From: Carcharhinus amblyrhynchos
Lineage: Eukaryota
NCBI GenBank assembly: GCA_965287045.1
Contig: OZ336872.1
Coordinates: forward strand, 104,966,001-105,030,000
Direction of reading: 5' to 3'
DNA length: 64,000 bases
Position numbers and translations under genes: made by a program. The notes under the pieces were generated by a model that saw only the letters and a list, made by a program, of their open reading frames with translations, was not told where the DNA came from and did no database searches. This document shows, in pieces, positions 2,900-63,226 of the stretch (within the stretch, counting starts at the first letter, position 1; every line of letters begins with the position of its first letter).

Positions 2900-3198
2900 G
2901 GGTGGCATGGTGGCACAGTCGTTAGCACTACTGCCTCACAGTGCCAGCAACCTGGGTCAGATTCCAAGCTTGGGTCATGTCTGTGCAGAGTCTGCATGTT
3001 CTCTCTGTGTCTGTGTGGGTTTCCTCCAGGTGCTCCAATTCCCTTCCACAATCCAAAAGATGTGCTGGGTAGGTGCACTGGCCATGCTAAATTCTCCCAC
3101 AGTGTACCCAAACAGGTACTGAAATGTGGCGACTAGGGGATTTTCACAGTAACTTCATTGCAGTGTTAATGTAAGCCTACTTGCCTCCCTAATAAATA
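2900..3198 (+). mobile_element. V-SINE (HE1-like head) with tail type A
   Basis: tRNA-derived head GGTGGCACAGT.GTTAGCAC, V-domain GTGGGTTTCCTCC.GGTGCTCC, tail GACTAGGGGATTTTCACAGTAACTTCATTGCAGTGTTAATGTAAGCCTACTTG...AATAAATA. Confidence 0.85.
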
Positions 3199-3239
3199 GA
3201 TGTATAAATGGAAAATACATTTGTAAGTGGCAAACTAGG

Positions 3240-6696: not shown

Positions 6697-6973
6697 TTTA
6701 AATTTATTTGTGTCACAAGTAGACTTACATTAACATTGCAATGAAATTCCTGTGAAAATCCCCTCGTTGCCACACTCTGCTGCCTGTTCAGGCACTCTGA
6801 GGGACAATTTAGTATGGTCAGTGCACCTAACCAGCATGTCTTTCAAACTATGGGAGGAAACCCATGCTGACACAAGGAGAATGTGAAGACTCCGCGCAGG
6901 CAGTGACCCAGATTAGGAATCAAACCTCGGTCCCTGGTGCTGTTAGGTAGCAAGGCTGACCACTGTGCCACCC
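6697..6973 (-). mobile_element. V-SINE, tail type A
   Basis: Reverse complement of the 2900-3198 element, with a small internal deletion. Confidence 0.85.
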
Positions 6974-7514: not shown

Positions 7515-8509
7515 TATTTTCCTTTATTCTTTCTGAGGAAGGCCAACATTTGTCACCAACCTCCAATCGTCCTCGAAGTGATTGGCTTCTGAGGCCATTT
7601 CAGAGGAAAGTTAAGAATATGGTACGTTGGTCTTCATAGCAAGAGGATTTGAATAGATGGATAGGGATGTTTTGCTGCGATTGTATAGGACATTGGTGAG
7701 GCCACACCTGGAGTATTATGTGTAGTTTTGGTGTCCTTTTCTGAGGGAAGATATCCATGCTGCACAGGCAGTACAGCAAATGTTTGCCAGGCTGATTCAT
7801 GGAATGGCTGGTCTCTCATATGAGAAGTTAAGTTGGTCTGGATTATATTCACTGGAGTTTAGAAGAGTAAGAGGGGACCTCATAGAAACCTATAAAATTC
7901 TAACAGGGTTAAACATGGTAGATTCAGAAAGAATGTTCCCAATGGTGGGGGAGTCCAGAACTAGAGGACATAAGGGATAAAACTTTTAGAATTGAGGTGA
8001 GGAGAAATACCTTCACCCAAAGGGTGGGGAATGTGTGGAATTCACAATTAGAGACAGTAGTTGAGGCCAAAACGTGTCTGATTTCAAGAAAAAATGAGAA
8101 AAAGCTCTGGAGCTGAAGGGATCAAAGGATATGGGGGAAAGGGGGATCAGGAGATTGATTTTGATGATCAGCCATGATCAAAATGAATGGTGGAGCAGGT
8201 TCAAAGGGCCAAATGGCCTTTTCATGTTTTTAGTTTCTATATTTCTATGAATCAACCATGTTGCTGTGGGGAGGTCACACCAGATAGAAATGGGCAATTT
8301 CCTTCCCCAAATGGACATGAATGAATGGGTTTTATGATAATCAACAGTGACTTCATGGTCACCATTTGACTGGCTTTTAATTGCAGATTTTTATTAATTG
8401 AATTTAAATTCCACCTACTGGGATTTTAACCCATATTGCCAAAGCATTATCCTAGGATACTGATTACTAGTCCATGCAGTGATATTACCACCATGCTATC
8501 ACCTCCCCA
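7515..8509 (-). mobile_element. Older tRNA-derived SINE interrupted by a CR1 fragment
   Basis: Host sequence GGCCATTTCAGAGG..GTTAAGA breaks at about 7618 and resumes TCAACCA.GTTGCTGTGGG at about 8251. Minus-strand head ends ACCACCATGCTATCACCTCCC. Similar to 20015-20380. Confidence 0.6.
7619..8250 (+). mobile_element. CR1-clade LINE (HER1-like) 3' fragment
   Basis: RT C-terminal motifs LVRPHLEY and GLYSLEFRRVRGDLIETYKIL...SRTRGH; (TTTCTAT)n tail. Confidence 0.9.
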
Positions 8510-10835: not shown

Positions 10836-11156
10836 TCATAGAATCACAGAATTCCTACAATACAGCAGGAGGCCATTCAGCCCATTGAGACAGCACCGAC
10901 AATAATCCCAACCAGCCCGATCTCTGTAACCCCACGTATTTACCCTGCTAATCTCCCTGACAAGGGGCAACTTAGCATGGTCAATCCACCTAACCTGCAC
11001 ATCTTTGAAGTGTGGGAGGAAACCGGAGCACCCAGAGGAAACCCATGCAGATACTTGGAGAATGTGCAAACTCCACACAGACGGTGAACCAAGCCTGGAA
11101 TTGAACCTGGGTTGTTGGCACTGTCAGCAGTACTAACCACTGTGTCACTGTGCTGC
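10836..11156 (-). mobile_element. V-SINE (HE1) with CR1-type tail B
   Basis: Head and V-domain, then minus-strand tail GGGCTGAATGGCCTCCTGCTG...ATTCTATGA. Confidence 0.85.
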
Positions 11157-12479: not shown

Positions 12480-13007
12480 GAGTGAGATTCTCTGGCCTCC
12501 CCAGCGTTTTTCTCCATGGCGAGAGATGACATGCCATTTGGTGGTACTGGGATCCTATTGGTCCCACCGCTATCACTGGGACTTCCCATTGAAGTCACTC
12601 AATGCCGCTGGGAAACCCGCAAAAGGGGGTGTGCCATTGATGGGATCAGAAAAGTTTTAACGCTTATTTATTAGTGTCACAAGCAGGCTTACGCTAACAC
12701 TGCAATGAAGCTACTGTGAAAATAGCCTAGTAGCCACACTCCAGCGCCCATTCGGTTACACTGAGGGAGAATTTAGCATGGCCAATATACCTAATCAGTG
12801 CGTCTTTCGGACTGTGGCAGGAAACCGGAGCACCCGGAGGAAACCCACACAGACATGGGCAAAACATGCAGACTCTGCACAGAGAGTGGCCCAAGCCAGG
12901 AATTGAACCCGGGTCCTTGGCACTGCGAGGCAGCAGTGCTAACCGCTGTGCCAATGTGCCGCCCCGAAGAGGATCCTGCCAATATGAACGGCCAGAGAAT
13001 TCTGGCC
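12480..13007. mobile_element. Short non-autonomous DNA element (MITE) split by a V-SINE insertion
   Basis: Inverted ends GAGATTCTCTGGCC ... GGCCAGAGAATTCTGGCC; related to 13630-13775. Confidence 0.55.
12664..12965 (-). mobile_element. V-SINE, tail type A (young; CpGs retained)
   Basis: Full head (B box GGTTCAATTCC on the minus strand), V-domain and tail ...GTGACACTAATAAATAA. Confidence 0.9.
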
Positions 13008-15777: not shown

Positions 15778-16095
15778 GTGGCAAGGTGGCACAGTGGTTA
15801 GTATTGCGACTTCACAGCACCAGGGACCTTGGTTCAATTCTGCTCTCGGGTCACTGTCTGTGCGGAGTTTGTATGTTCTCTGCGTGGGTTTCCTTTGCAC
15901 GCTCCAGTTTCTTCCAACATTCCATCGATGTACAGGTTAGGTGATTGGCCATGCTCAATTGCCCCTTAGTCTCAGGGAAATTAGGAGGGTAAATATGTGG
16001 AGCCATGGGGATAGGGTTTGGGTTAGATTGTTGTTGGTGCAGCCTTGATGGGCCACATCACCTCCTTCTGCACTGCCAATTCTATGATTCTATGA
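15778..16095 (+). mobile_element. V-SINE (HE1) with CR1-type tail B
   Basis: GGTGGCACAGTGGTTAG A box, GGTTCAATTC B box, V-domain, tail (TTCTATGA)2. Confidence 0.85.
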
Positions 16096-16164: not shown

Positions 16165-17560
16165 AAAGGTAAGAAATGTGGATATCCGCTGATGATTGAG
16201 AGTATTCAGTTCCATTTGCAATTACTCTGATAACGAAGCAGTCTATTCCCATAAGGAGTAAGATTTGGATACTGTCCAGACTTGGGCAATGTGACATGGA
16301 ACATTTGCATGACACAAGGCAATGACCATCTCCAACAACATGGCATCTAACTCCCTCCAGTCAAGATTTAATGGCATTACCACCATCAGGTTCCCCACCG
16401 TCAACATTCTAGAGGATTAGTATTAGCCAGGAACTGAACTGGATCAGCCACATAAATACTGGAGCTAGAAGGATAAGTCAGAGGATGGGAATTCTCCAGT
16501 GAGTGACTCACATCCTGATTGGCCACAATCTAAAAGCTACAAGTTGGGAGTTTGATGGAATATTCTCCACTTGCCTACATTAAGTGTGGCTCCAGCAGCA
16601 CTCAAGTAGCTCCATGCCATCCTGAACAAAGCAGCCCACTTGATTGGCACCCCATCTGCTACTTTAAACATTTGCTCTCTGTGACACTGGCACAAATGGT
16701 GGCTGCAGCGTGTACCAACGGCAAGAGGCACTGCAGCAACTTGTCAAGTTGCCGTATCTAAGGAAGGATGTGCTGTCTTTGGAAAGGGTCCAGAGGAAGT
16801 TCACAAGAATGACCCCTGGAATGAAGAGCTTGTCGTATGCGAAATGGTTGAGCACTCTGGGTCTGTACTTGTTGGAGTTTAGAAGGATGATGGGGGAATC
16901 TTATTGAAACTTACAGGATACTGCAAGGCCTGGATAGGGTGAATGTGGAGAGGATATTTCCACTGGTAGGAAAAACTAGAACCAGAGGGCACAACGTTAT
17001 GCTAAAGGAGCAATCCTTTAAAATTAAGATGAATTTCTTCAGCCAGTGAGTGGTGAATCTGGGGAACACTTTACCACAGAAGGCTGTGGAGGCCAGGTCA
17101 TTGAGTGTCTTTAAGACAGCGAGAGATAGGTTCTTGATTAATAAGGGGATCAGAGGTTATGGGGAAAAGGCAGGAGAATGAGGATGAGAAAAATATCAGC
17201 CATGATTGAATGATGGAGCATACTTGATGGGCTGAGTGACTTAATTCTGCTCCTATGTCTTATGGTCTTATTGTCAAGCCTTCATCGACAGTACTTCCCA
17301 AACCTGCAAACTCTGCCACCTAGAATAACAGGCAGGAGGTACATGGGAACATCACCATCTTCAAATTCACCTCTAAGTCACACATCACCCTGGCTTGCAA
17401 ATTCATTGCCCTTTCTTTAGTGCTGTATCTAGTCCCTGGAATCTCCTACCTAACAGGAGAATGGAAGTACCTACGCCACATGGACTGCAACGACAGCACT
17501 TTTCTCAAGGACAATTAGGGAGAGGCAAGAAATGCTGGGCCAACCAACATCCTGAGAATG
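16165..17560 (+). mobile_element. Older non-LTR retrotransposon 3' fragment (L2/CR1-group), interrupted by a younger CR1
   Basis: RT C-terminal-like MEYSPLA... and ELNW.SHIN motifs; sequence is continuous across the nested insertion. Confidence 0.6.
16749..17270 (+). mobile_element. 5'-truncated CR1 LINE with 8-bp target-site duplication TTGTCAAG
   Basis: PYLRKDVLSLERVQRKFTRM...LGLYLLEFRRM and (CTTATGGT)n tail. TTGTCAAG at 16741-16748 and 17271-17278. Confidence 0.9.
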
Positions 17561-18099
17561 CAAAACATATAACATGTTACTATTTAAGGTTAAATATTAC
17601 TTCAGATGCCAAATTCAACATAGACAGCCCAATTCGGCAAAGTCCTGCGCAAGCATGTTTGGATGCGTGACAAGGCTCCACTCCCTGGGTGGTAAATTAA
17701 ATAAATATCTTATTGAAAATGACAGCATAATGTTCAACTGGCACAGAAGGAATGAAAGAATTTGAAGCAACAATTTTCTAATTTGATGAAAGGAATGTCC
17801 AGGTGTATGGCAGCACAGTGATACTGGTAAAACTGCCCAGAGTTTGTGGGTTCATCTGGTTCCTTTTCAGCAAAAACTTCACCATCAAGCACTTGTAACA
17901 ACAGGGAAGGCAACACACCGCTCCATACATAGTCTGGCCCACAATGATTCCAATCCCAAAAAATCTGGGTGACTCTTAATGTGCACTGAAGCCCCTTAGC
18001 AATTATGATAAAGTAAAATCATAAGATAAATATCAAATGTAGGTTTATTGTAACTGATTCAGGCGTCAAATTAGGACAAATCTCAGGCAATTCCAGCCC

Positions 18100-19166
18100 A
18101 ATTAACTCTGCAAAGTTTTGAGATTTGTACAACGTGACTTTCAGAGACTTTCTCCCCCACGTGAATCCTCTGTTTTTGCAGTGCAGAGTGCACTAGCGTG
18201 ATCCACTCCAGAAACTAGCAGGCAGGGCCTAACGAGGCTGCCTGCCTAACGCTGAGTGGGCCACTGCACATCCGCAGATCTGTGAGTGCCGAGATTGTTA
18301 CATGTGCAGTGGCCCCTATTTGCTGGCCTCCCGATCACTGGACCCCGCACCCCCTCCCACAGCCCAATCACTGGCTCCCTGAACATGTCCAGGCCAGCCT
18401 TGACCACCATCCCTCCACAATCCCCTCAGTCCCAATCTCCAGATACCCACCCCCAATCACCACTCGCCCCCCACTACCCCCCACCCTGCAGTCCTGACCC
18501 ACTCTGCAGCCTCAACCCCCCCCAGCAGGCTGCTCCCCCAACCCTGATGGCCAGCCCCAATCGCTGGCCTCCCTCACTCTGTCACTCAGCCCAAAGTGTC
18601 AGAGTGGCAGCGAGACCCCCCACCCCCCCCAGGAGACCCAACCCGCCCATCAGGCCCCACCTCTATTAAACCCCACCCCCTTGGCATTACCCAATCCCTG
18701 ATGGGCAGTGCCAAGGTGCTCCCTGGGCATTGATACTTTACTCCTTGGGCAGTGCCAGGGGACTCTGGTGGACACTGTCAAGGTGACAATGGCCAGGGGG
18801 CACCACCTCCTCGGTGCTCCACCTTCTGGGGGGGTGACGATTGCCCCCCTTCACTCCAGCAGGGTCGGGCCGCTAGATCCCTGCATGTGGAGAGCTATAG
18901 TAAACCCCACTGGAGTGAAATATTCCTGGCAGTGGTGGTGGGATGGCAGGAGAGAGGGAGGAGTGGGTGGAGATGCTAGAGATAAATTACATTTAAAAGG
19001 AATGCGTAGGAGGATTTAAATAATAAACCAATTTCCCATGCGCAGCTGACAGCACCAGAATTCTGGCATCTGGAGATGCACAGGGAGCCCACTAAATGGC
19101 CTCCACACAAGTCTCCTGGCCCACTGCGTTACAAAAGCAAAGCAGTGGGATGGGAGAATTGCCCCT
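18100..19166. mobile_element. C-rich non-autonomous DNA-transposon-like element
   Basis: C-rich interior with GGCAGTGCCA(A/G)GG motifs also seen at about 55250 and 59840; terminal GGGAGAATTGCCCC. Confidence 0.4.
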
Positions 19167-19189
19167 CTTGTCTAAAGTATTGAAATGTT

Positions 19190-19320
19190 GGCCAGGATTT
19201 TCCAACCTCGCCTGTAGCTGGGATTCCCCGGTTCCACTGCAGTGAATGGAGATTGGGCTAAGCGCCAAATTCTCTGTTCTTACAGGCAGCTGGGTGTGCG
19301 AGACCGGAGAATTGCGGCCG
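19190..19320. mobile_element. About 130-bp MITE, family X
   Basis: TIR-like GGCCAGGATTTTCC...GGAGAATTGCGGCC. Internal GGCT.AGCGCCAAATTCTC shared with 36647, 48619 and 63257. Confidence 0.7.
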
Positions 19321-20014
19321 CTGTTTTTCTGTCTATAATGCCACTTTGTTCCATCCACCTGGTAATCACCAATTTTCAGTCTAGTGCTTTAAAATTGCCC
19401 TTAGCAGGATTAAAAAGGAAACTTCGTTGGATCAAAATTGGACAAGAATGTTTATAGTTATTGAGTGCTGTATAATTTAAGACCAATGCTTTCTTGTTAC
19501 AGTACTTCTGGCTACACCAGTCTCAAAGCAAAAGCTGTGTGTGCGTGCATGTTTATGCATGTGAAATACTTTATTCAAGTGTCCAAATACTGATTTTAGC
19601 AAAGTTAGAACATCCACTTTATCTTCGAAGTGATGTTTAAAATGTTCCAAGTTGACTGTTTGTAAACATTTTAATATTCAGTTCACTTCAATTTCAGTTA
19701 CATTGCAGCCGGTGCAAAGCCATTGTGACATGAGACTAACATTTTGACTGCTTCTGCTGAACTGAATCCAGTATGAACTAGCTAAAGTTGCACTGCCGGT
19801 TTTCTATTCATTCAATGTGAGTTTCACATTGTATCAATGTAAATTGTTGCAAAAAACTGAGGATTCAAAGTGACAAAATCCCATTATTTTGGCTGATTTC
19901 ATTTATTCCAAAATTTTTGCATTCTACAATGTAAAAGGTTGGGAGCCGCTCACTGTCTATCTGTGTCTTATTTTTATGGCAAATGTAATGTGAGTGGCTT
20001 CAGTGTGACTTGCT

Positions 20015-20380
20015 TTTTTTTTACTCATTCACAAGTTGTGGCCATTATTTGCAAGTCCAGTGTTTATTGTCCATCCCTAATTGCCCTTGAGCAGGTGTTG
20101 GTGAGGCTGCCGTCTTGGCAATTGAGTGACTTACCAGGCCATTTCAGAGGGTTTGCAAAGAGTCAATCACATTCCTTGGCTCTGGAGTCATATTTAGATC
20201 AAACCGTTGAAGAACGGCAGCCTATCTTCCAAATCGTGAACCAGATGAGTTTGAAAGGCAATCTGGTAGTTTTCATGGCCACCATTACTCATATTGGTTT
20301 TTTATTCTATACTTAATTCGTTTGGTGCAAACTGAACTCATGTTGCTTCAGTCCAGGTTTCTGGATTACTGGTCTAGTTA
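20015..20380 (-). mobile_element. Older tRNA-derived SINE, host of the tRNA/V-SINE chimera; resumes at 20772-20795
   Basis: TTTATTGTCCATCCCTAATTGCCCTTGA and GGCCATTTCAGAGGG motifs; similar to 7515-8509. Confidence 0.65.
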
Positions 20381-20688
20381 AAAATTTATTTATTAGTGTC
20401 ACAAGTAGGCTCACATTAACACTACAATGAAGTTACTATGAAAATCCCCTGAGTTACCATACTCCGGTGCCTGTTCAGGTAGACTGAGGGAGAATTTAGC
20501 ATTTCCAACGCACTTAACCACAGCATCTTTTGGACTGTGGGAGGAAACCAGAGCACCCAGAGGGAACCCACACAGACATAGGGAGAACATGCAAACTCCA
20601 CACAGACAGTGACCCAAGGTGAGAATCGAACCTGGGTGCCTGGCGCTATGAGGTAGCAGTGCTAACCATTGTGCCACTGTGCTTCCCC
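20381..20688 (-). mobile_element. V-SINE, tail type A (3' part of the tRNA-SINE chimera)
   Basis: Complete head with GGTTCGATTC B box, V-domain and tail ...GTGACACTAATAAATAAA. Confidence 0.9.
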
Positions 20689-20698
20689 AAAAGAATTT

Positions 20699-20771
20699 TG
20701 AGCTAGCCAGGAATCAAACCTAGAATCTTCTGATCTGCAGTCAGAAGCGGTATCCATTGCGCCACTGGCCC
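20699..20771 (-). pseudogene. tRNA-Arg(ACG)-derived pseudogene; anticodon position now reads GCA
   Basis: Minus strand GGGCCAGTGGCGCAATGGATACCGCTTCTGACTGCAGATCAGAAGATTCTAGGTTTGATTCCTGGCTAGCTCA (73 nt). About 8 differences from vertebrate tRNA-Arg-ACG as I recall it. T-loop GTTCGA is mutated to GTTTGA. Confidence 0.88.
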
Positions 20772-22043
20772 CTAGTTACAAAACCACTATTCTTATCATA
20801 TCACTATTTGATGTTCAAAAAGCCAATTAAAGTAAGGGGAAGATAAGGAAGAATTCAATGATCTCAACAATGTTAAGGACACATCGAGTAAGATTTGTTA
20901 TCAATAAGGTAAAACAGACTGGCAATTCAATTATGCCTTTGGAGTTCTGTTAATACTTACATAACCAAAACAGCTCACAGATTTAAATCAGAAGGAATGA
21001 TCATTACTGATTTAGAACCTATTAGCATTGGTGAACTAGTAGGCATAGCTTTATTTTAAAATTTCCTTTTTGAGAAATGACACTAACAACCTATATCTAT
21101 GGACGTCTATGGCTCAGAAAGTAATAGCCTTGCCTCTGAGCCTGAAACTCTGGTTTTAGTCCCAATCTGGAACTTGTTGCCTATTGAATGACTACTCCTG
21201 ATATGGTTCAACAGGTTGGTAAATCAGCTTGCTAATCCTTCCAACACTTCCCTGTTATCACTAAAGGGGAATAAGTGTTTGTGAAGATAGAAAATAATCT
21301 TAAATCTGTTTCTCTTTCACAAATGCTGAGTGTTTTCTGGACATTTTTTTGTTTCAGGTTTCCAGCAACCGAAATATTTTGCCTTGATTTGATTATATTG
21401 GGTAAGTTCAATGAAATCTATTTGAATTCTGTGCAGGGTAGAAGAAGGAAGCTGACCGGGAGGTGTGTTGTTACTGGGTATGGTAATGAAACAACTCAGC
21501 AGTGTTAATGGGGTGTTCTCAACATAAGCAAGAGACCTGAATTATCAACATAGCAATGTGCACAAAAAAGTTATAATTATTTATTCCTAGGTTGCTAAGA
21601 GAATGTTTGTGATAAGTGTCACTCATTCCGCATTAAGTCAAAAGATGATTGGAAGAAAGTAAAAGATCTTAAGTTGTTCTTTACAGAAGGTGAGCATAAA
21701 ATCTATTTAATTTTTTAAATTAAAATGATATAAGTTAAGTATTATTGGGAATGGTGGGATTCCAAATTTAGATCAGCCTGAAAAATTTGAATACTTATCT
21801 CTTTCTTATTCATCAATTAGCTCCCTATTGAGGTTCTGTGTCCCACTTAATGTCCTCTTTTCTATGATTTGCCACGAGCAGCCCTGTATGATAAATGCTT
21901 TAAACCATAGACATGCCATTATAAAATTCTTTAGGGAAATTATCATTTGATCCTCAGAGGAAGCAGTATTATCCTGTCTCTAAACTTACATCAAGTCTAG
22001 TTTACTTCTCCCCACCACCCTCCCCCTTCTCAGTGACTCAGTA

Positions 22044-22172
22044 AAAAGTCTCATAACACCAGGTTAAAGTCCTACAGGTGTTTTTGGAATTAAAAGCTTT
22101 TGGAGCACTGGTCCTTCATCAGGTGAGTGGGGCCCACTGACCTGATGAAGGGGCAGCGCTCCAAAAGCTTTT
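22044..22172. mobile_element. Penelope-like element termini in inverted arrangement, with decayed hammerhead-like cores
   Basis: Inverted repeat 22092-22172. Each arm carries CCTGATGAAGG..CAG.GCTCCAAAAGC; left flank AACACCAGGTTAAAGTCC.ACAGGT. Confidence 0.65.
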
Positions 22173-22394
22173 GTGTGGAATTTGCATGTCCCTCCCATAT
22201 CTGCATATTGCCTGTGTGTGCTACGATTCCCTCCCAAAGTGCAAAAGACGTGCTCGTTAGGTGCATTGGCCTTGCTAAATTCTCCCTGGGCGTAACCAAA
22301 CGGGTGCTGGAGAGTGGCGACTAGGGAATTTTCGCACAAACTTCATTGCTCTGCTAACGTCAGCCTACTTGTGTCACTGATAAATAAACTTTAA
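22172..22394 (+). mobile_element. 5'-truncated V-SINE, tail type A
   Basis: V-domain remnant plus tail GGCGACTAGGGAATTTTC...GCCTACTTGTGTCACTGATAAATAAAC. Confidence 0.8.
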
Positions 22395-22499
22395 ACATAA
22401 CGAGTGCTTTTTTAAAAAAAATTATTTTGGCATTTTGTATTTGCAGAACAAATAAGGACTTCCTGAAATTTTGCCTTGCTCCTGTGGTATATGTACTAG

Positions 22500-30829: not shown

Positions 30830-31250
30830 CATTGGGGGAACTGTGTCATTGGGGTGTTGGGGATTGTCATTGGGACATGGGGCCTGTGACACTGGGGACT
30901 GTGTCATTGGGAACGCTGCTGGGGACTGTGTGATTGGGGATTGTATTGGGAACTGTGACATTGGGGACTGTGTCACTGGCGACTCAATTGGGGACTATGT
31001 CATTGCGGATTGAACTGGGGACTGCGTCATTGGGGACAGTGATATTGGGGATTTATTAGGGATTCGTCTGGGGACTGTATTGGGGACTTTGTTATTGGGG
31101 ACTGTGTCATTCGTGACTCTGCCATTGGGGACTGTGACACTGGGGACTATGTAACTGCAGACTCTATTGGGGACAGTGTCATTGGCGATTGTATTGGGGG
31201 CTGGATTGGAGACTATCACTGGAGACTGTGTTATTGGGGATTGTGCCACT
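30830..31250. repeat. Degenerate G-rich minisatellite, unit about 15 bp (ATTGGGGACTGTGTC)
   Basis: More than 20 recurring TTGGGGACTGTG-like units seen directly. Confidence 0.9.
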
Positions 31251-42125: not shown

Positions 42126-42430
42126 GGGCTGGTACCGTGGACAGTGGTTAGCACTGCTGTCTCATAGCGCCAGGAACCCAGGTTCGATTCCCGGCATGGG
42201 TCACTGTCTGTGTGGAGTTTGCACATTCTCCCCATGTCTGTTTGGGTTTCTCCGGGTGCTCCAGTTTCCTCCACAGTCTGAAAGACATGCTGGTTAGGTG
42301 CATTGGCCACGCTAAATTCTCCCTCAGTGTATCTGAATAGGAGTCAGAGTGTGACGACTTGGGGATTTTCACGGTAACTTCAATGTAGTGTTCATGTAAG
42401 CCTACTTGATACATGAATAATTAAACTTTA
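42126..42430 (+). mobile_element. V-SINE, tail type A
   Basis: CAGTGGTTAGCACTGCTG head, GGTTCGATTCCC B box, V-domain, type A tail. Confidence 0.88.
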
Positions 42431-50979: not shown

Positions 50980-51292
50980 GGCATGGTGGCACAGTGGTTA
51001 GCGTTGCTGCCTTGCAGCACATTGGGTGCTGGGTTCAACTCTGGCCTCTAATGACTATCCGTGAGAAGTTTGCATATTCTCCCAGTTGCTCTTCTCCGGG
51101 TGCTCTGGTTTCCTCCCACAGTCCAAAGATGTGCAGGTTAGATGGAATGGCCATGTTAAATTATCCCTTACTGTCAGGGGACCAGCTTGGGTAAATGAAT
51201 GGGGTTGTGTGGATAGGGCCTGGATACGATTGTGGTCAGTGCAGACTCGATGGGCCGAATGGCCTCCTTCTGCACTGTCGGATTCTATGATT
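50980..51292 (+). mobile_element. V-SINE (HE1) with CR1-type tail B
   Basis: Head, V-domain and tail GATGGGCCGAATGGCCTCCTTCTGCACTG..GGATTCTATGA. Confidence 0.88.
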
Positions 51293-54980: not shown

Positions 54981-56700
54981 TTCATTTCTATTTATGTTGC
55001 CTCCTATAATAACCCATGGGCAGCATTTTCCACTCTGCGCACAGAGTGTTGGCTGAGGCAAGAAAACCAGCATGCAGCTCTCCAGCTGCACAGTCGAGTT
55101 CTCTTCCAGATAATCTGGCACTTTGTGCACAAAAAAATCTGGAAGCATTGCCCATGCCATGGTGGTGGTGGGTCAGGGCCAAATAGAGCTGGCAAGGCCA
55201 GCTTCACAGAGATTGGGTCAGTGCCCTGATCTGAGCTTAGAAAAATACCAGGGGGCAGTGCCAGGGCACTGGGGAGGCATGTGCCTCTCCCTTCCAGGAG
55301 CTAGACATAGTTGTGCATCTTTGGTGGGTTCCTCTTGACTACTTAATATTTTTAAAAAGCAGTTGGCAAACTGTCATGTCAAGAATACGAAATGTAGGAG
55401 GATGACGTGGTGGGAAAGCAGTCTTCTGTGTTGAACAAAAGGGCCGAACCTTGTTATAACACCAGCAAGGGGTGGGAAAATCAGAAATTGAGATCTCGCC
55501 AGAGGGAATCCCATTTTCTGATTCCCGTGAGATTTTCTGCTGGCATTGCCATCTGCACTCGTGGCAGATATGGGCACAAATCTGCACCCAGTGCATCTGT
55601 GGACCAAGGCTTCATTACCCTTTCAAAAATCTTACAATTAACAGGACACTCCTATTTCTTCTAATTTTTTTCACTGAATTAGATTGTCTCTGTCAGTATC
55701 TGCCCATCCTGATGCCTATACTGGTCCCTTTGATCTTTCATAGTCCCAGTCATAGTTTCCCATTATTTCAAATAGATACCATCAGCAAATTTTGATGATT
55801 TTGTTTCTTTAATTTCTAAGTTAGGTTCATTTTTGCATGTGTGGAGTAAATACCAATAACCTTAAAACAAGCTCCAATGGATCATTAGTTATCATGGGCT
55901 GAACTTTCTGGTCCCGCTTGCCAGGGACCAGAAATTCCCACCCGAGGTCAACGGACCTTTTAATGGTCCGTTAAATTGTCCGTTCCCTCCTGCGACAATT
56001 CCCACTGTGGGTGAGAGTGGAAGATCCAAATGCTAGCCCCATACCTTTACAGCTTGATAAACTTGCCTTTACCTCTGACCTTCTCACGTGTCATCTTTCC
56101 ATCTGCCATGTCTTCTGTATGGATCAAAACGAGCTGTTTATGCTTGAAGTATATTTTGAGAAATCTATTTATCTACACAGATTTAATTCAAAAATAGCTC
56201 TTTATAATAGTCAAGTTGCAGAGCAGCTGGCCTTCATCATAGATGGCTACAGAAATCGTTCCTGTTTCACTGATTTGTAACAGTCGCTTTCTGCTGTAGG
56301 GCATCTTTAATGTGAATTATCCTGATTCATTTTAAAACCCTTCTGTGCTTTTGACCCTGTCCTCCCTCCCAAGCAATTTGTGCCCCTGGTTTCCTTAACC
56401 TTTGTCTTTTAAAGTGCTGATTTATGTGCTGAGACCCTCAGGTTGTATTTTGCATAAATCAAAAATTCTGTAGATAAAGCGCAAAACATTTGATTCAAAA
56501 GACATAAACATACCCTTTGCACAGTTCATTTCTCCATGCGTGGATGGGAAATTCGGGTTATAACTGCAGGGGAAAGTTGGCTCTGATTTATTCTTTGGGC
56601 TTTGGGAATACATGGGTTACTGTGACTCATCTTAGTATTTCACCACAGTTTTCTTCATTGTTAGATCCTACATTGATAATGCCTCCATTTTGGTCCACAG

Positions 56701-56765
56701 AGACTCTTATGGATTCGAGATGGGCAACTGCTGAGTTGGGATGGACTGCACACCCAGATTCAGGG
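56701..56765 (+). CDS. ephb3: EphB3 exon 2 (65 bp; ETLMDSRWATAELGWTAHPDSG), start of the ephrin ligand-binding domain
   Basis: Acceptor ...tggtccacag| and donor |gtaagg, phase 1 to 0. Translation matches the EphB exon-2 motif ETLMD..(W)..ELxW..HP.SG. Confidence 0.95.
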
Positions 56766-60365: not shown

Positions 60366-60481
60366 TACGGTCTAAAATGGTTGAACAATGAGGTGCTGTT
60401 CCTCAAACTTGGTTTGTGCTTCACTGGAACAGTGCCGTCGGCTGGTAATTGTGTTGCATGCTTGATAATATTTTGTTACAG

Positions 60482-60638
60482 CAGAATGGTACTAAAACAT
60501 GTATCACAAATTATCATAATATACATAGGAACTGCAGAATGGCATTAAAACATGTATCACATGTTGTCATAATATACATAGGAACAACAGAATGGCACTA
60601 AAACTTGTATCACAAATTATCATAATATACACAGGAAT
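60482..60638. repeat. 53-bp tandem repeat, 3 copies
   Basis: CAGAATGGYAYTAAAACWTGTATCACA..TT.TCATAATATACAYAGGAA units start at 60482, 60535 and 60588. Confidence 0.95.
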
Positions 60639-60858
60639 GCTGTCAGCAATGTTGTAGGGATTGAGTAACAACAAAAGGATTATTTTAAATGATATAGAAT
60701 GCTACTGATCAGAATGCCAACTATCAGTGTTACAGTACTAGACATTTGACTCCCAATTTACTGACTTTCTAGTTGATATATAGATGATACCAGAAACATA
60801 TTCAATTGTAAAATGACAGTTTTTTTTACAACAAATATTATTTGTTTCCTTTGTTCAG

Positions 60859-61531
60859 TGGGAAGAAGTAAGTGGATACGATGATGCAATAAATCCTATT
60901 CGCACATACCAGGTCTGTAATGTGATGGAAGCAAACCAGAATAATTGGCTTCGAACTACTTACATAGCACGTAAAGATGTTCAGAGAGTATATGTGGAGA
61001 TGAAATTCACTGTGCGGGACTGCAACAGCATACCAAATATCCCAGGTTCTTGTAAGGAAACTTTTAATTTATTTTACTACGAATCTGACACAGACTCAGC
61101 AACAGCGTCAACACCATTCTGGATGGAGAACCCTTATGTGAAAGTGGACACCATTGCACCTGATGAGAGTTTTTCCAAACTGGAGACTGGGCGAGTCAAC
61201 ACAAAGATCAGAAGCTTTGGTCCATTGGCCAAGAATGGATTCTATTTAGCGTTTCAGGATCTGGGGTCGTGCATGTCACTCATTTCCCTGCGAGTGTTCT
61301 ACAAGAAATGCCCATCTGTGATCGCAAATTTTGCCGTTTTTCCAGAAACGGTTACTGGAGCAGAACCTACATCACTTGTCATTGCTCCTGGTACCTGTCT
61401 GAGTAATGCTATTGAACTATCTGTGCCGCTGAAGCTATATTGTAATGGGGACGGGGAGTGGATGGTACCTGTTGGAGCTTGTACCTGTGCTCCTGGATAT
61501 GAACCTGCTGAAAAGGAGACAGCTTGCCAAG
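60859..61531 (+). CDS. ephb3: EphB3 exon 3 (673 bp), ligand-binding domain plus cysteine-rich (sushi/EGF-like) region
   Basis: Acceptor ttgttcag|TGG GAA and donor CAA G|GTAGG. Open frame [22 protein letters not shown]...[36 protein letters not shown]...[21 protein letters not shown]...[14 protein letters not shown]...[47 protein letters not shown] and [14 protein letters not shown] match my recollection of EPHB3 rather than EPHB1/2. Confidence 0.95.
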
Positions 61532-62928: not shown

Positions 62929-63226
62929 TGAATCCCTACAGTGAAGAAGGACGCCATTGGGTGCATCGAGCCTGCACCACCAACAATCCCACCCAAGCCA
63001 TTACCATTCTAATCCCCTGACAGTAAATGTCAATTTAGCAGGGCCAATCAACCTAACCCACACATCTTTGGATTGTGGGAGGAAACTGGAGCACCCAGAG
63101 GAAGCTCACACAGACAAGCGGCGAATGTGCAAACTCCGCACAGACAGACATCTGAGCTTGGAATTGAACCTTGATCCCTGGCTTTGTGAAGCAGCAGTGC
63201 TACCCACTGTGCCACAGTGTTGCCCC
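62929..63226 (-). mobile_element. V-SINE, tail type B
   Basis: Reverse complement of head, V-domain and CR1-type tail. Confidence 0.85.

Follow-up and report, generated by a model that had tools for sequence, protein, structure and literature searches.

A composite insert on the minus strand

Within the window, by which we mean the whole 64-kb stretch of DNA analysed here, a composite insert lies on the minus strand between two copies of a short direct repeat. Read in minus-strand order, the unit comprises TAACTAG (20778-20772), a 73-nt tRNA (20771-20699), the linker AAATTCTTTT (20698-20689), a 308-nt SINE (20688-20381) and a second TAACTAG (20380-20374). The tRNA forms the 5' part and the SINE the 3' part, and both have the same orientation. 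The two outer repeats, one 5' of the insert (20772-20778, minus strand) and one 3' of it (20374-20380, minus strand), are read as a target-site duplication. On the plus strand the repeat is CTAGTTA, exact over seven bases on both sides, with the match failing at base 8. A 7-mer match of this kind, sought within 11 offsets, arose in 0.14% of 200,000 random pairs, a chance probability of about 0.0014. At the junction between the two parts, the T4 of the linker is flush with the G-run at which the SINE copies of the window begin. This is the only tRNA-trailer-SINE junction in the 64 kb, and a search of metagenome contigs, among which this genome is not likely to be represented, gave 0 matches to the junction pattern. 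Parts of 18800-22400 are present in 23 sequencing runs from 10 studies (organisms coded A-H and four unlabelled runs), six of which contain at least half of 380 words; none of the runs listed is an RNA run, and these shares carry no weight in what follows. A first-pass annotation of this DNA had described CTAGTTA around the whole unit, a start at tRNA position 1 (20771), a 73-nt tRNA-Arg(ACG)-like sequence without CCA, a short trailer between tRNA and SINE, and a complete SINE. All of these elements were recovered here, and the comparisons with real tRNA genes and with other SINE copies that bear on them are given below.

The insert may interrupt an older SINE, which the first-pass annotation had described as continuous across it. 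On its 5' side lies the presumed 5' stub of this host element (approximately 20779-20795, minus strand), proposed from its sequence, which includes a D-loop-like AGTGG. On the other side lies what is presumably the 3' body and tail of the host (approximately 20014-20373, minus strand), which ends in an A-run and whose tail has homologues in the window. These homologues are weak (17486-17562, E 0.0067; 7568-7606, E 0.003) and cover the tail only: neither nhmmer nor blastn found a full second copy of the host element in the window, and a 19-nt motif from the host head gave no further window match at 3 mismatches. The host is presumably a SacSINE1-like tRNA SINE that was split within its head. 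In the reconstructed empty site, ARAGORN finds no tRNA down to -ps80, and the hairpin seen there at anticodon-arm spacing is one of eight such hairpins.

The surrounding window is vertebrate DNA with 41% GC, and its SINE types would suggest a shark. Two plus-strand exons, one near 56700-56765 and one at 60853-61530, belong to an EphB3-like receptor gene; the second of these is 85-87% identical to its best matches, which are named ephrin type-B receptor 3-like where they are named at all. Relative to this gene, the insert is on the opposite strand, some 36 kb upstream of the earliest exon located. No exon 1 was located in the 64 kb, so the insert would lie either in intron 1 or in upstream DNA. 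Two tandem arrays were also observed in the window. One is a G-rich array at 30874-31245 with overlapping periods of 15, 27, 42 and 69, and the other, at 60478-60637, consists of three 53-bp units with 86% similarity; the large EphB exon follows some 200 bases downstream of it.

The tRNA copy and the linker

The minus-strand tRNA at 20699-20771 is the sole tRNA of the 64 kb, detected using both ARAGORN and Rfam (53.1 bits, E 1.4e-8). Its anticodon is now GCA, and ARAGORN calls it as Cys. A functional tRNA-Cys(GCA) was ruled out, as the body of the molecule is that of Arg(ACG). The real genes used for comparison were obtained by scanning metagenome contigs with a 21-base motif, which gave eight loci; two of these (L003 and L007), with tRNA-Ser calls, were removed before counting. 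The six loci retained are tRNA-Arg(ACG) genes that serve as stand-ins rather than as the parent gene of the copy. They are identical to one another over 73 bases, and the copy is identical to them at 65 of the 73. The first base of the copy is position 1 of the real genes, its last base is the discriminator, and CCA is absent, such that positions 1-73 are present in full.

The eight changes relative to the real genes are A22C, G26T, A34G, G36A, C56T, C59T, G68A and G73A. Three of these (G36A, C56T and G73A) are CpG deaminations, leaving A22C, G26T, A34G, C59T and G68A. A functional tRNA gene was ruled out by this load of changes, which includes the anticodon and C56, and by the folding comparison against shuffled sequences, in which the copy had a z score of 0.06 versus -1.60 for a real gene. 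Folding beyond that of shuffles was likewise not found for the SINE head (z 0.30) or for tRNA and SINE head together (z -0.57). As judged from its sequence, the element is a dead tRNA-Arg(ACG) copy, and the locus is most likely inert today.

The 10-nt linker (20689-20698, minus strand) ends in T4 and is best read, from its own sequence and from the trailers of real genes, as the 3' trailer of a pre-tRNA with its Pol III oligo-U end. A T4 follows the gene end within 15 nt in each of the six real tRNA-Arg(ACG) genes, and of 10-mers drawn at random from the window, 1.1% have T4 at their end. The trailer of one real gene (L002) starts AATTCTTTTT, which is offset by one base from the linker; this likeness may be partly a matter of chance among A/T-rich trailers.

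Some features of the reference loci themselves were also recorded. L003 and L007 lie on contigs 107 and 56 kb long, and at both of them positions 30-223 hold two calls in succession, tRNA-Pro(cgg) of 91 nt and then tRNA-Ser(gct) of 73 nt. The first 21 bases of the latter are those of tRNA-Arg(ACG), and the lack of a long variable arm is unusual for a Ser tRNA. The tRNA-Arg(ACG) genes L002 and L008 have different trailers and a nearly identical downstream flank, and this shared flank suggests a multi-copy tRNA array.

The SINE and the number of insertions

The 3' part of the insert (20381-20688, minus strand) is a full-length, tRNA-headed SINE as judged against the other copies in the window. 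It has A and B boxes of its own, its middle is conserved, and its family tail terminates in AATAAATAAA(C/T)TTT. It has 11 other blastn matches in the window, none of which is a LINE carrying the focal tail. Nine long copies were aligned, and two short ones (29 and 20 nt) were left out. The focal SINE is 69-82% identical to the nine and is complete up to the G-run where the other full copies begin. Motifs resembling A and B boxes were read directly in its first 65 bases and are kept in the window copies; the head gave no tRNA match in Rfam at the gathering score. None of the nine copies (0/9) is preceded by a tRNA. The conserved middle is common to all aligned copies. The focal tail is found in five of them (2910-3201, 6702-6971, 12664-12965, 22172-22392 and 42134-42429), each of which contains an internal T4, as does the focal SINE, and another tail is found in four (10963-11154, 15786-15972, 50986-51168 and 63032-63226). 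The focal tail motif had 0 matches in viral contigs and 0 in prokaryote contigs, collections not expected to contain this genome.

Two further observations concern this family. The presence of two unrelated 3' tails on the same head and middle, in five and four window copies respectively, points to a tail swap between partner LINEs. At 22000-22392 (plus strand) there is a headless copy of the SINE that is fused on its 5' side to a different sequence, presumably the end of a Penelope-like repeat. The focal SINE is putatively a V-SINE (V-type), likened to V-SINEs and to HE1 by description, and its tail is probably of a type other than the HE1 tail. In PMC4824008, V-SINEs are defined by an 80-bp central domain, and HE1 is given for sharks and rays. 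As in the V-SINE superfamily and HE1 (PMC4824008 and PMC6887750), the focal SINE is tRNA-headed, and it has a conserved middle that occurs with either of two tails.

The two parts of the insert have decayed to the same extent. The tRNA differs from the real genes at 8/73 positions (11.0%), and the SINE differs at 34/289 sites (11.8%) from a leave-one-out consensus, which is rough due to the few copies it is built from; Fisher's test gives p = 1.0, with low power on 73 bases, which is consistent with a single date for both parts. As the linker resembles the last bases of the SINE, an inner duplication was sought around the SINE alone, which the first-pass annotation had named as the mark of two independent insertions. 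None was found: the linker and the SINE end share only the 5-mer AAATT, which lies in the family tail. The last SINE bases are those of this tail, recognisable in the five other same-tail copies, and they abut the outer duplication directly. A clean duplication of at least 7 bp was present in none of the eight other window copies examined (the copy starting at 22172 was left out, and the ends of the other-tail copies are approximate), and so the focal duplication is untypical of the family as seen here.

A single duplication, equal decay and the lack of an inner duplication together make a single insertion of tRNA, trailer and SINE as one unit the best reading of the sequence. If there had instead been two independent insertions, a pre-tRNA retrocopy would have arrived with the 7-bp duplication, and a SINE would later have inserted at the end of its trailer. 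The shared AAATT could be taken as a trace of such a history, and pre-tRNA retropseudogenes are reported in human (PMC5322556 and PMC4476161). Furthermore, most SINE copies in the window lack clear duplications, which would allow a blunt SINE insertion. However, the second insertion would need to have landed precisely at the boundary and with matching orientation, the SINE ends in a family-encoded tail that meets the outer duplication with no inner one left, and tRNA and SINE have decayed equally. We consider two insertions to be distinctly improbable.

Routes to the fusion

The first-pass annotation had proposed that a 5'-matured, 3'-unprocessed pre-tRNA was retroposed jointly with a SINE, and this proposal is supported by the one duplication, the equal decay, a trailer like those of real genes, the lack of an inner duplication and possible modification footprints, which are discussed at the end of this section. 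The insert is real and most likely a single chimeric retrocopy, an unusual form of a known by-product of reverse transcription. In La-bound pre-tRNAs the leader is removed before the trailer, and LINE enzymes are able to jump end-to-end between templates. We lean, with limited confidence, towards a one-off event in which a LINE reverse transcriptase jumped from a SINE RNA to the UUUU end of a pre-tRNA. A LINE-encoded enzyme would have nicked the old SINE, begun target-primed reverse transcription at the tail of a full-length SINE RNA and continued through to the first base of this RNA. From there it would have jumped end-to-end to a nuclear pre-tRNA-Arg(ACG), stripped of its leader but not of its trailer, whose UUUU-3' terminus was free. 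The pre-tRNA would have been copied as far as position 1, with the enzyme perhaps reading inosine-34 as G and misreading dimethyl-G26 as T. Joining of the second strand would leave the single 7-bp duplication, and the inert copy would decay afterwards. The sequence itself shows the anatomy, the identity of the tRNA, the one duplication and the equal decay, while an RNA intermediate, the template jump, the LINE partner, the way in which the two changes arose and the single-copy status of the locus are inferred. Chimeras of small RNAs with SINEs, within duplications of 1-9 bp, are reported for L2-type systems (PMC4476161). Counting against a jump to a tRNA, template switching may be limited to U6 and U6atac among human snRNAs, as Doucet et al. 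suggest (PMC4476161), and the tRNA/L1 chimeras known so far are mostly antisense halves (bioRxiv 2025.02.02.635956).

Of the routes named in the first-pass annotation, template switching and read-through both stand, and RNA ligation appears to be the least likely on the basis of end chemistry. Read-through would start from a tRNA-Arg gene with a SINE inserted into its terminator or immediately after it: Pol III would pass the remaining T4, RNase P would cut the leader, and the fused RNA would be retroposed, once or a few times, before trailer cleavage. This would predict the same anatomy, the single duplication and the modification footprints. The T4 would be no firm stop, because all six same-tail SINE copies, the focal one included, have an internal T4, and the linker T4 could be a split terminator, since a run of at least five T is found within 20 nt in four of the six real trailers. 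Against this, a SINE insertion exactly at the terminator would be required first, together with escape from 3' trailer cleavage, and a second copy is absent from the 64 kb, although this last is a weak point. Overall, we regard read-through as unlikely. The tolerance of internal T4 in same-tail copies also speaks for an undescribed dimeric family, in which a tRNA-Arg head joined to a V-type SINE would be amplified from a master gene. The start at tRNA position 1 and the full length are what copies of a family would look like, and head additions have founded families before (PMC4494074 and PMC7245038). The head is, however, seen in front of no other aligned copy in the window, and its changes amount to neutral decay plus possible misreads and none further. 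The linker T4 would speak against one Pol III unit, even if internal T4 appears passable, and such a family was not found in the literature searched. A dimeric family is in our view quite improbable. RtcB-type ligation joins a 2',3'-cyclic phosphate to a 5'-OH. The 3' terminus of a pre-tRNA is UUU-OH, and the 5' terminus of an intact Pol III SINE RNA is a triphosphate. These ends would be unsuited to such a ligase, and nothing is missing from the first bases of the focal SINE. If pre-tRNA and SINE RNA had been ligated ahead of reverse transcription, a route that has been proposed for U6/L1, the final anatomy would be identical, and ligation is one route named for sense full-length chimeras (bioRxiv 2025.02.02.635956); even so, we hold it to be very improbable indeed.

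Among known systems, the locus is at the sequence level closest to U6/SINE chimeras, with a single duplication, a 5' small RNA in the same orientation and no inner duplication. In the U6/SINE and U6/L2 retrocopies of platypus (Mon-1) and Anolis (AnolisSINE2), an oligo-U-ended Pol III RNA likewise lies 5' of a SINE within a short duplication (1-9 bp in platypus), and the authors ascribe these chimeras to template switching by a LINE other than L1 (Doucet et al. 2015, PMC4476161). The present case differs from them in that the 5' partner is a pre-tRNA with its trailer and in that both partners are full length, while the platypus U6 parts are nearly all 5'-truncated. Human tRNA/LINE-1 chimeras (Law and Burns, bioRxiv 10.1101/2025.02.02.635956), with 21 loci, likewise join a tRNA and a retroelement in one duplication through a single event. 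Those are mostly antisense tRNA halves with L1, attributed to twin priming, whereas here we see a whole tRNA with trailer, in sense, with a SINE. The tailless and pre-tRNA retropseudogenes of therians likewise point to nuclear, unprocessed tRNA as a template for LINE reverse transcriptase, but they are 3'-truncated, stand-alone and L1-mobilised (PMC5322556); in the focal copy the whole 3' end is kept and is fused to a SINE. A small RNA was similarly added 5' of an existing SINE in SINEU, the tree-shrew Tu types, the 5S-headed DeuSINEs and hagfish SINE1-1_EBu, for which template switching has been proposed (PMC4494074, PMC4824008 and PMC7245038). Those elements were amplified as uniform families, whereas ours is a single copy within 64 kb.

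The acquisition of new SINE heads via fusions of this type is a published model (PMC4494074, PMC4824008 and PMC4476161), and so the locus is an illustration of the model, not its discovery. The literature searched contained no fusion of a whole SINE with a whole tRNA in sense orientation, trailer included; as Repbase, Dfam and most subscription papers were outside this search, the absence speaks weakly for novelty. The tRNA heads of SINEs are customarily explained by template switching onto a tRNA, which is usually deduced from the consensus sequences of old families. An unamplified copy with both partners whole points to the RNA that was used, namely a trailer-bearing nuclear precursor and not a mature CCA tRNA.

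Finally, the changes in the tRNA copy were considered as possible traces of base modification in the template. Sites at which reverse transcriptase misreads modified tRNA are G9, G26, C32, A34 and A58 (PMC4697793). I34, which is read as G, is present on human precursors that still have a leader or trailer (PMC4446420), and in yeast the dimethylation of G26 is suggested to take place during La occupancy of the pre-tRNA (PMC5737608). Two of the five changes in the copy that are not CpG deaminations are A34>G and G26>T. The sites G9, C32 and A58 are unchanged, G26 lies within a CpG, and the changes are scored against stand-in genes rather than the parent. That A34>G and G26>T are misreads of inosine and dimethyl-G is suggestive only, a lead and not a result. 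If true, the footprint favours an RNA template, but it does not favour a template jump over read-through. It is possible, if rather doubtful, that the locus belongs to an undescribed class of chimeras between whole pre-tRNAs and SINEs that arises repeatedly and parallels the U6 chimeras, with the two changes as misreads; at the far and quite improbable end of this reading, the unit would have founded a dimeric family. Such copies would then record germline pre-tRNA modification in fossil form, and SINE head acquisition would here be caught at the stage of the La-bound precursor. Were the changes at positions 34 and 26 to recur across tRNA retrocopies, they would provide a genome-only test of RNA origin, as well as a readout of the behaviour of LINE enzymes at modified bases. 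For this copy, the probability that at least two of five changes fall on the five misread sites is 0.038 when calculated by position. Using per-base rates from four SINE copies, the probability of any change at two or more of the five sites is 0.093. For exactly A34>G with G26>T it is 0.0008, with the directions having been picked after seeing the data.
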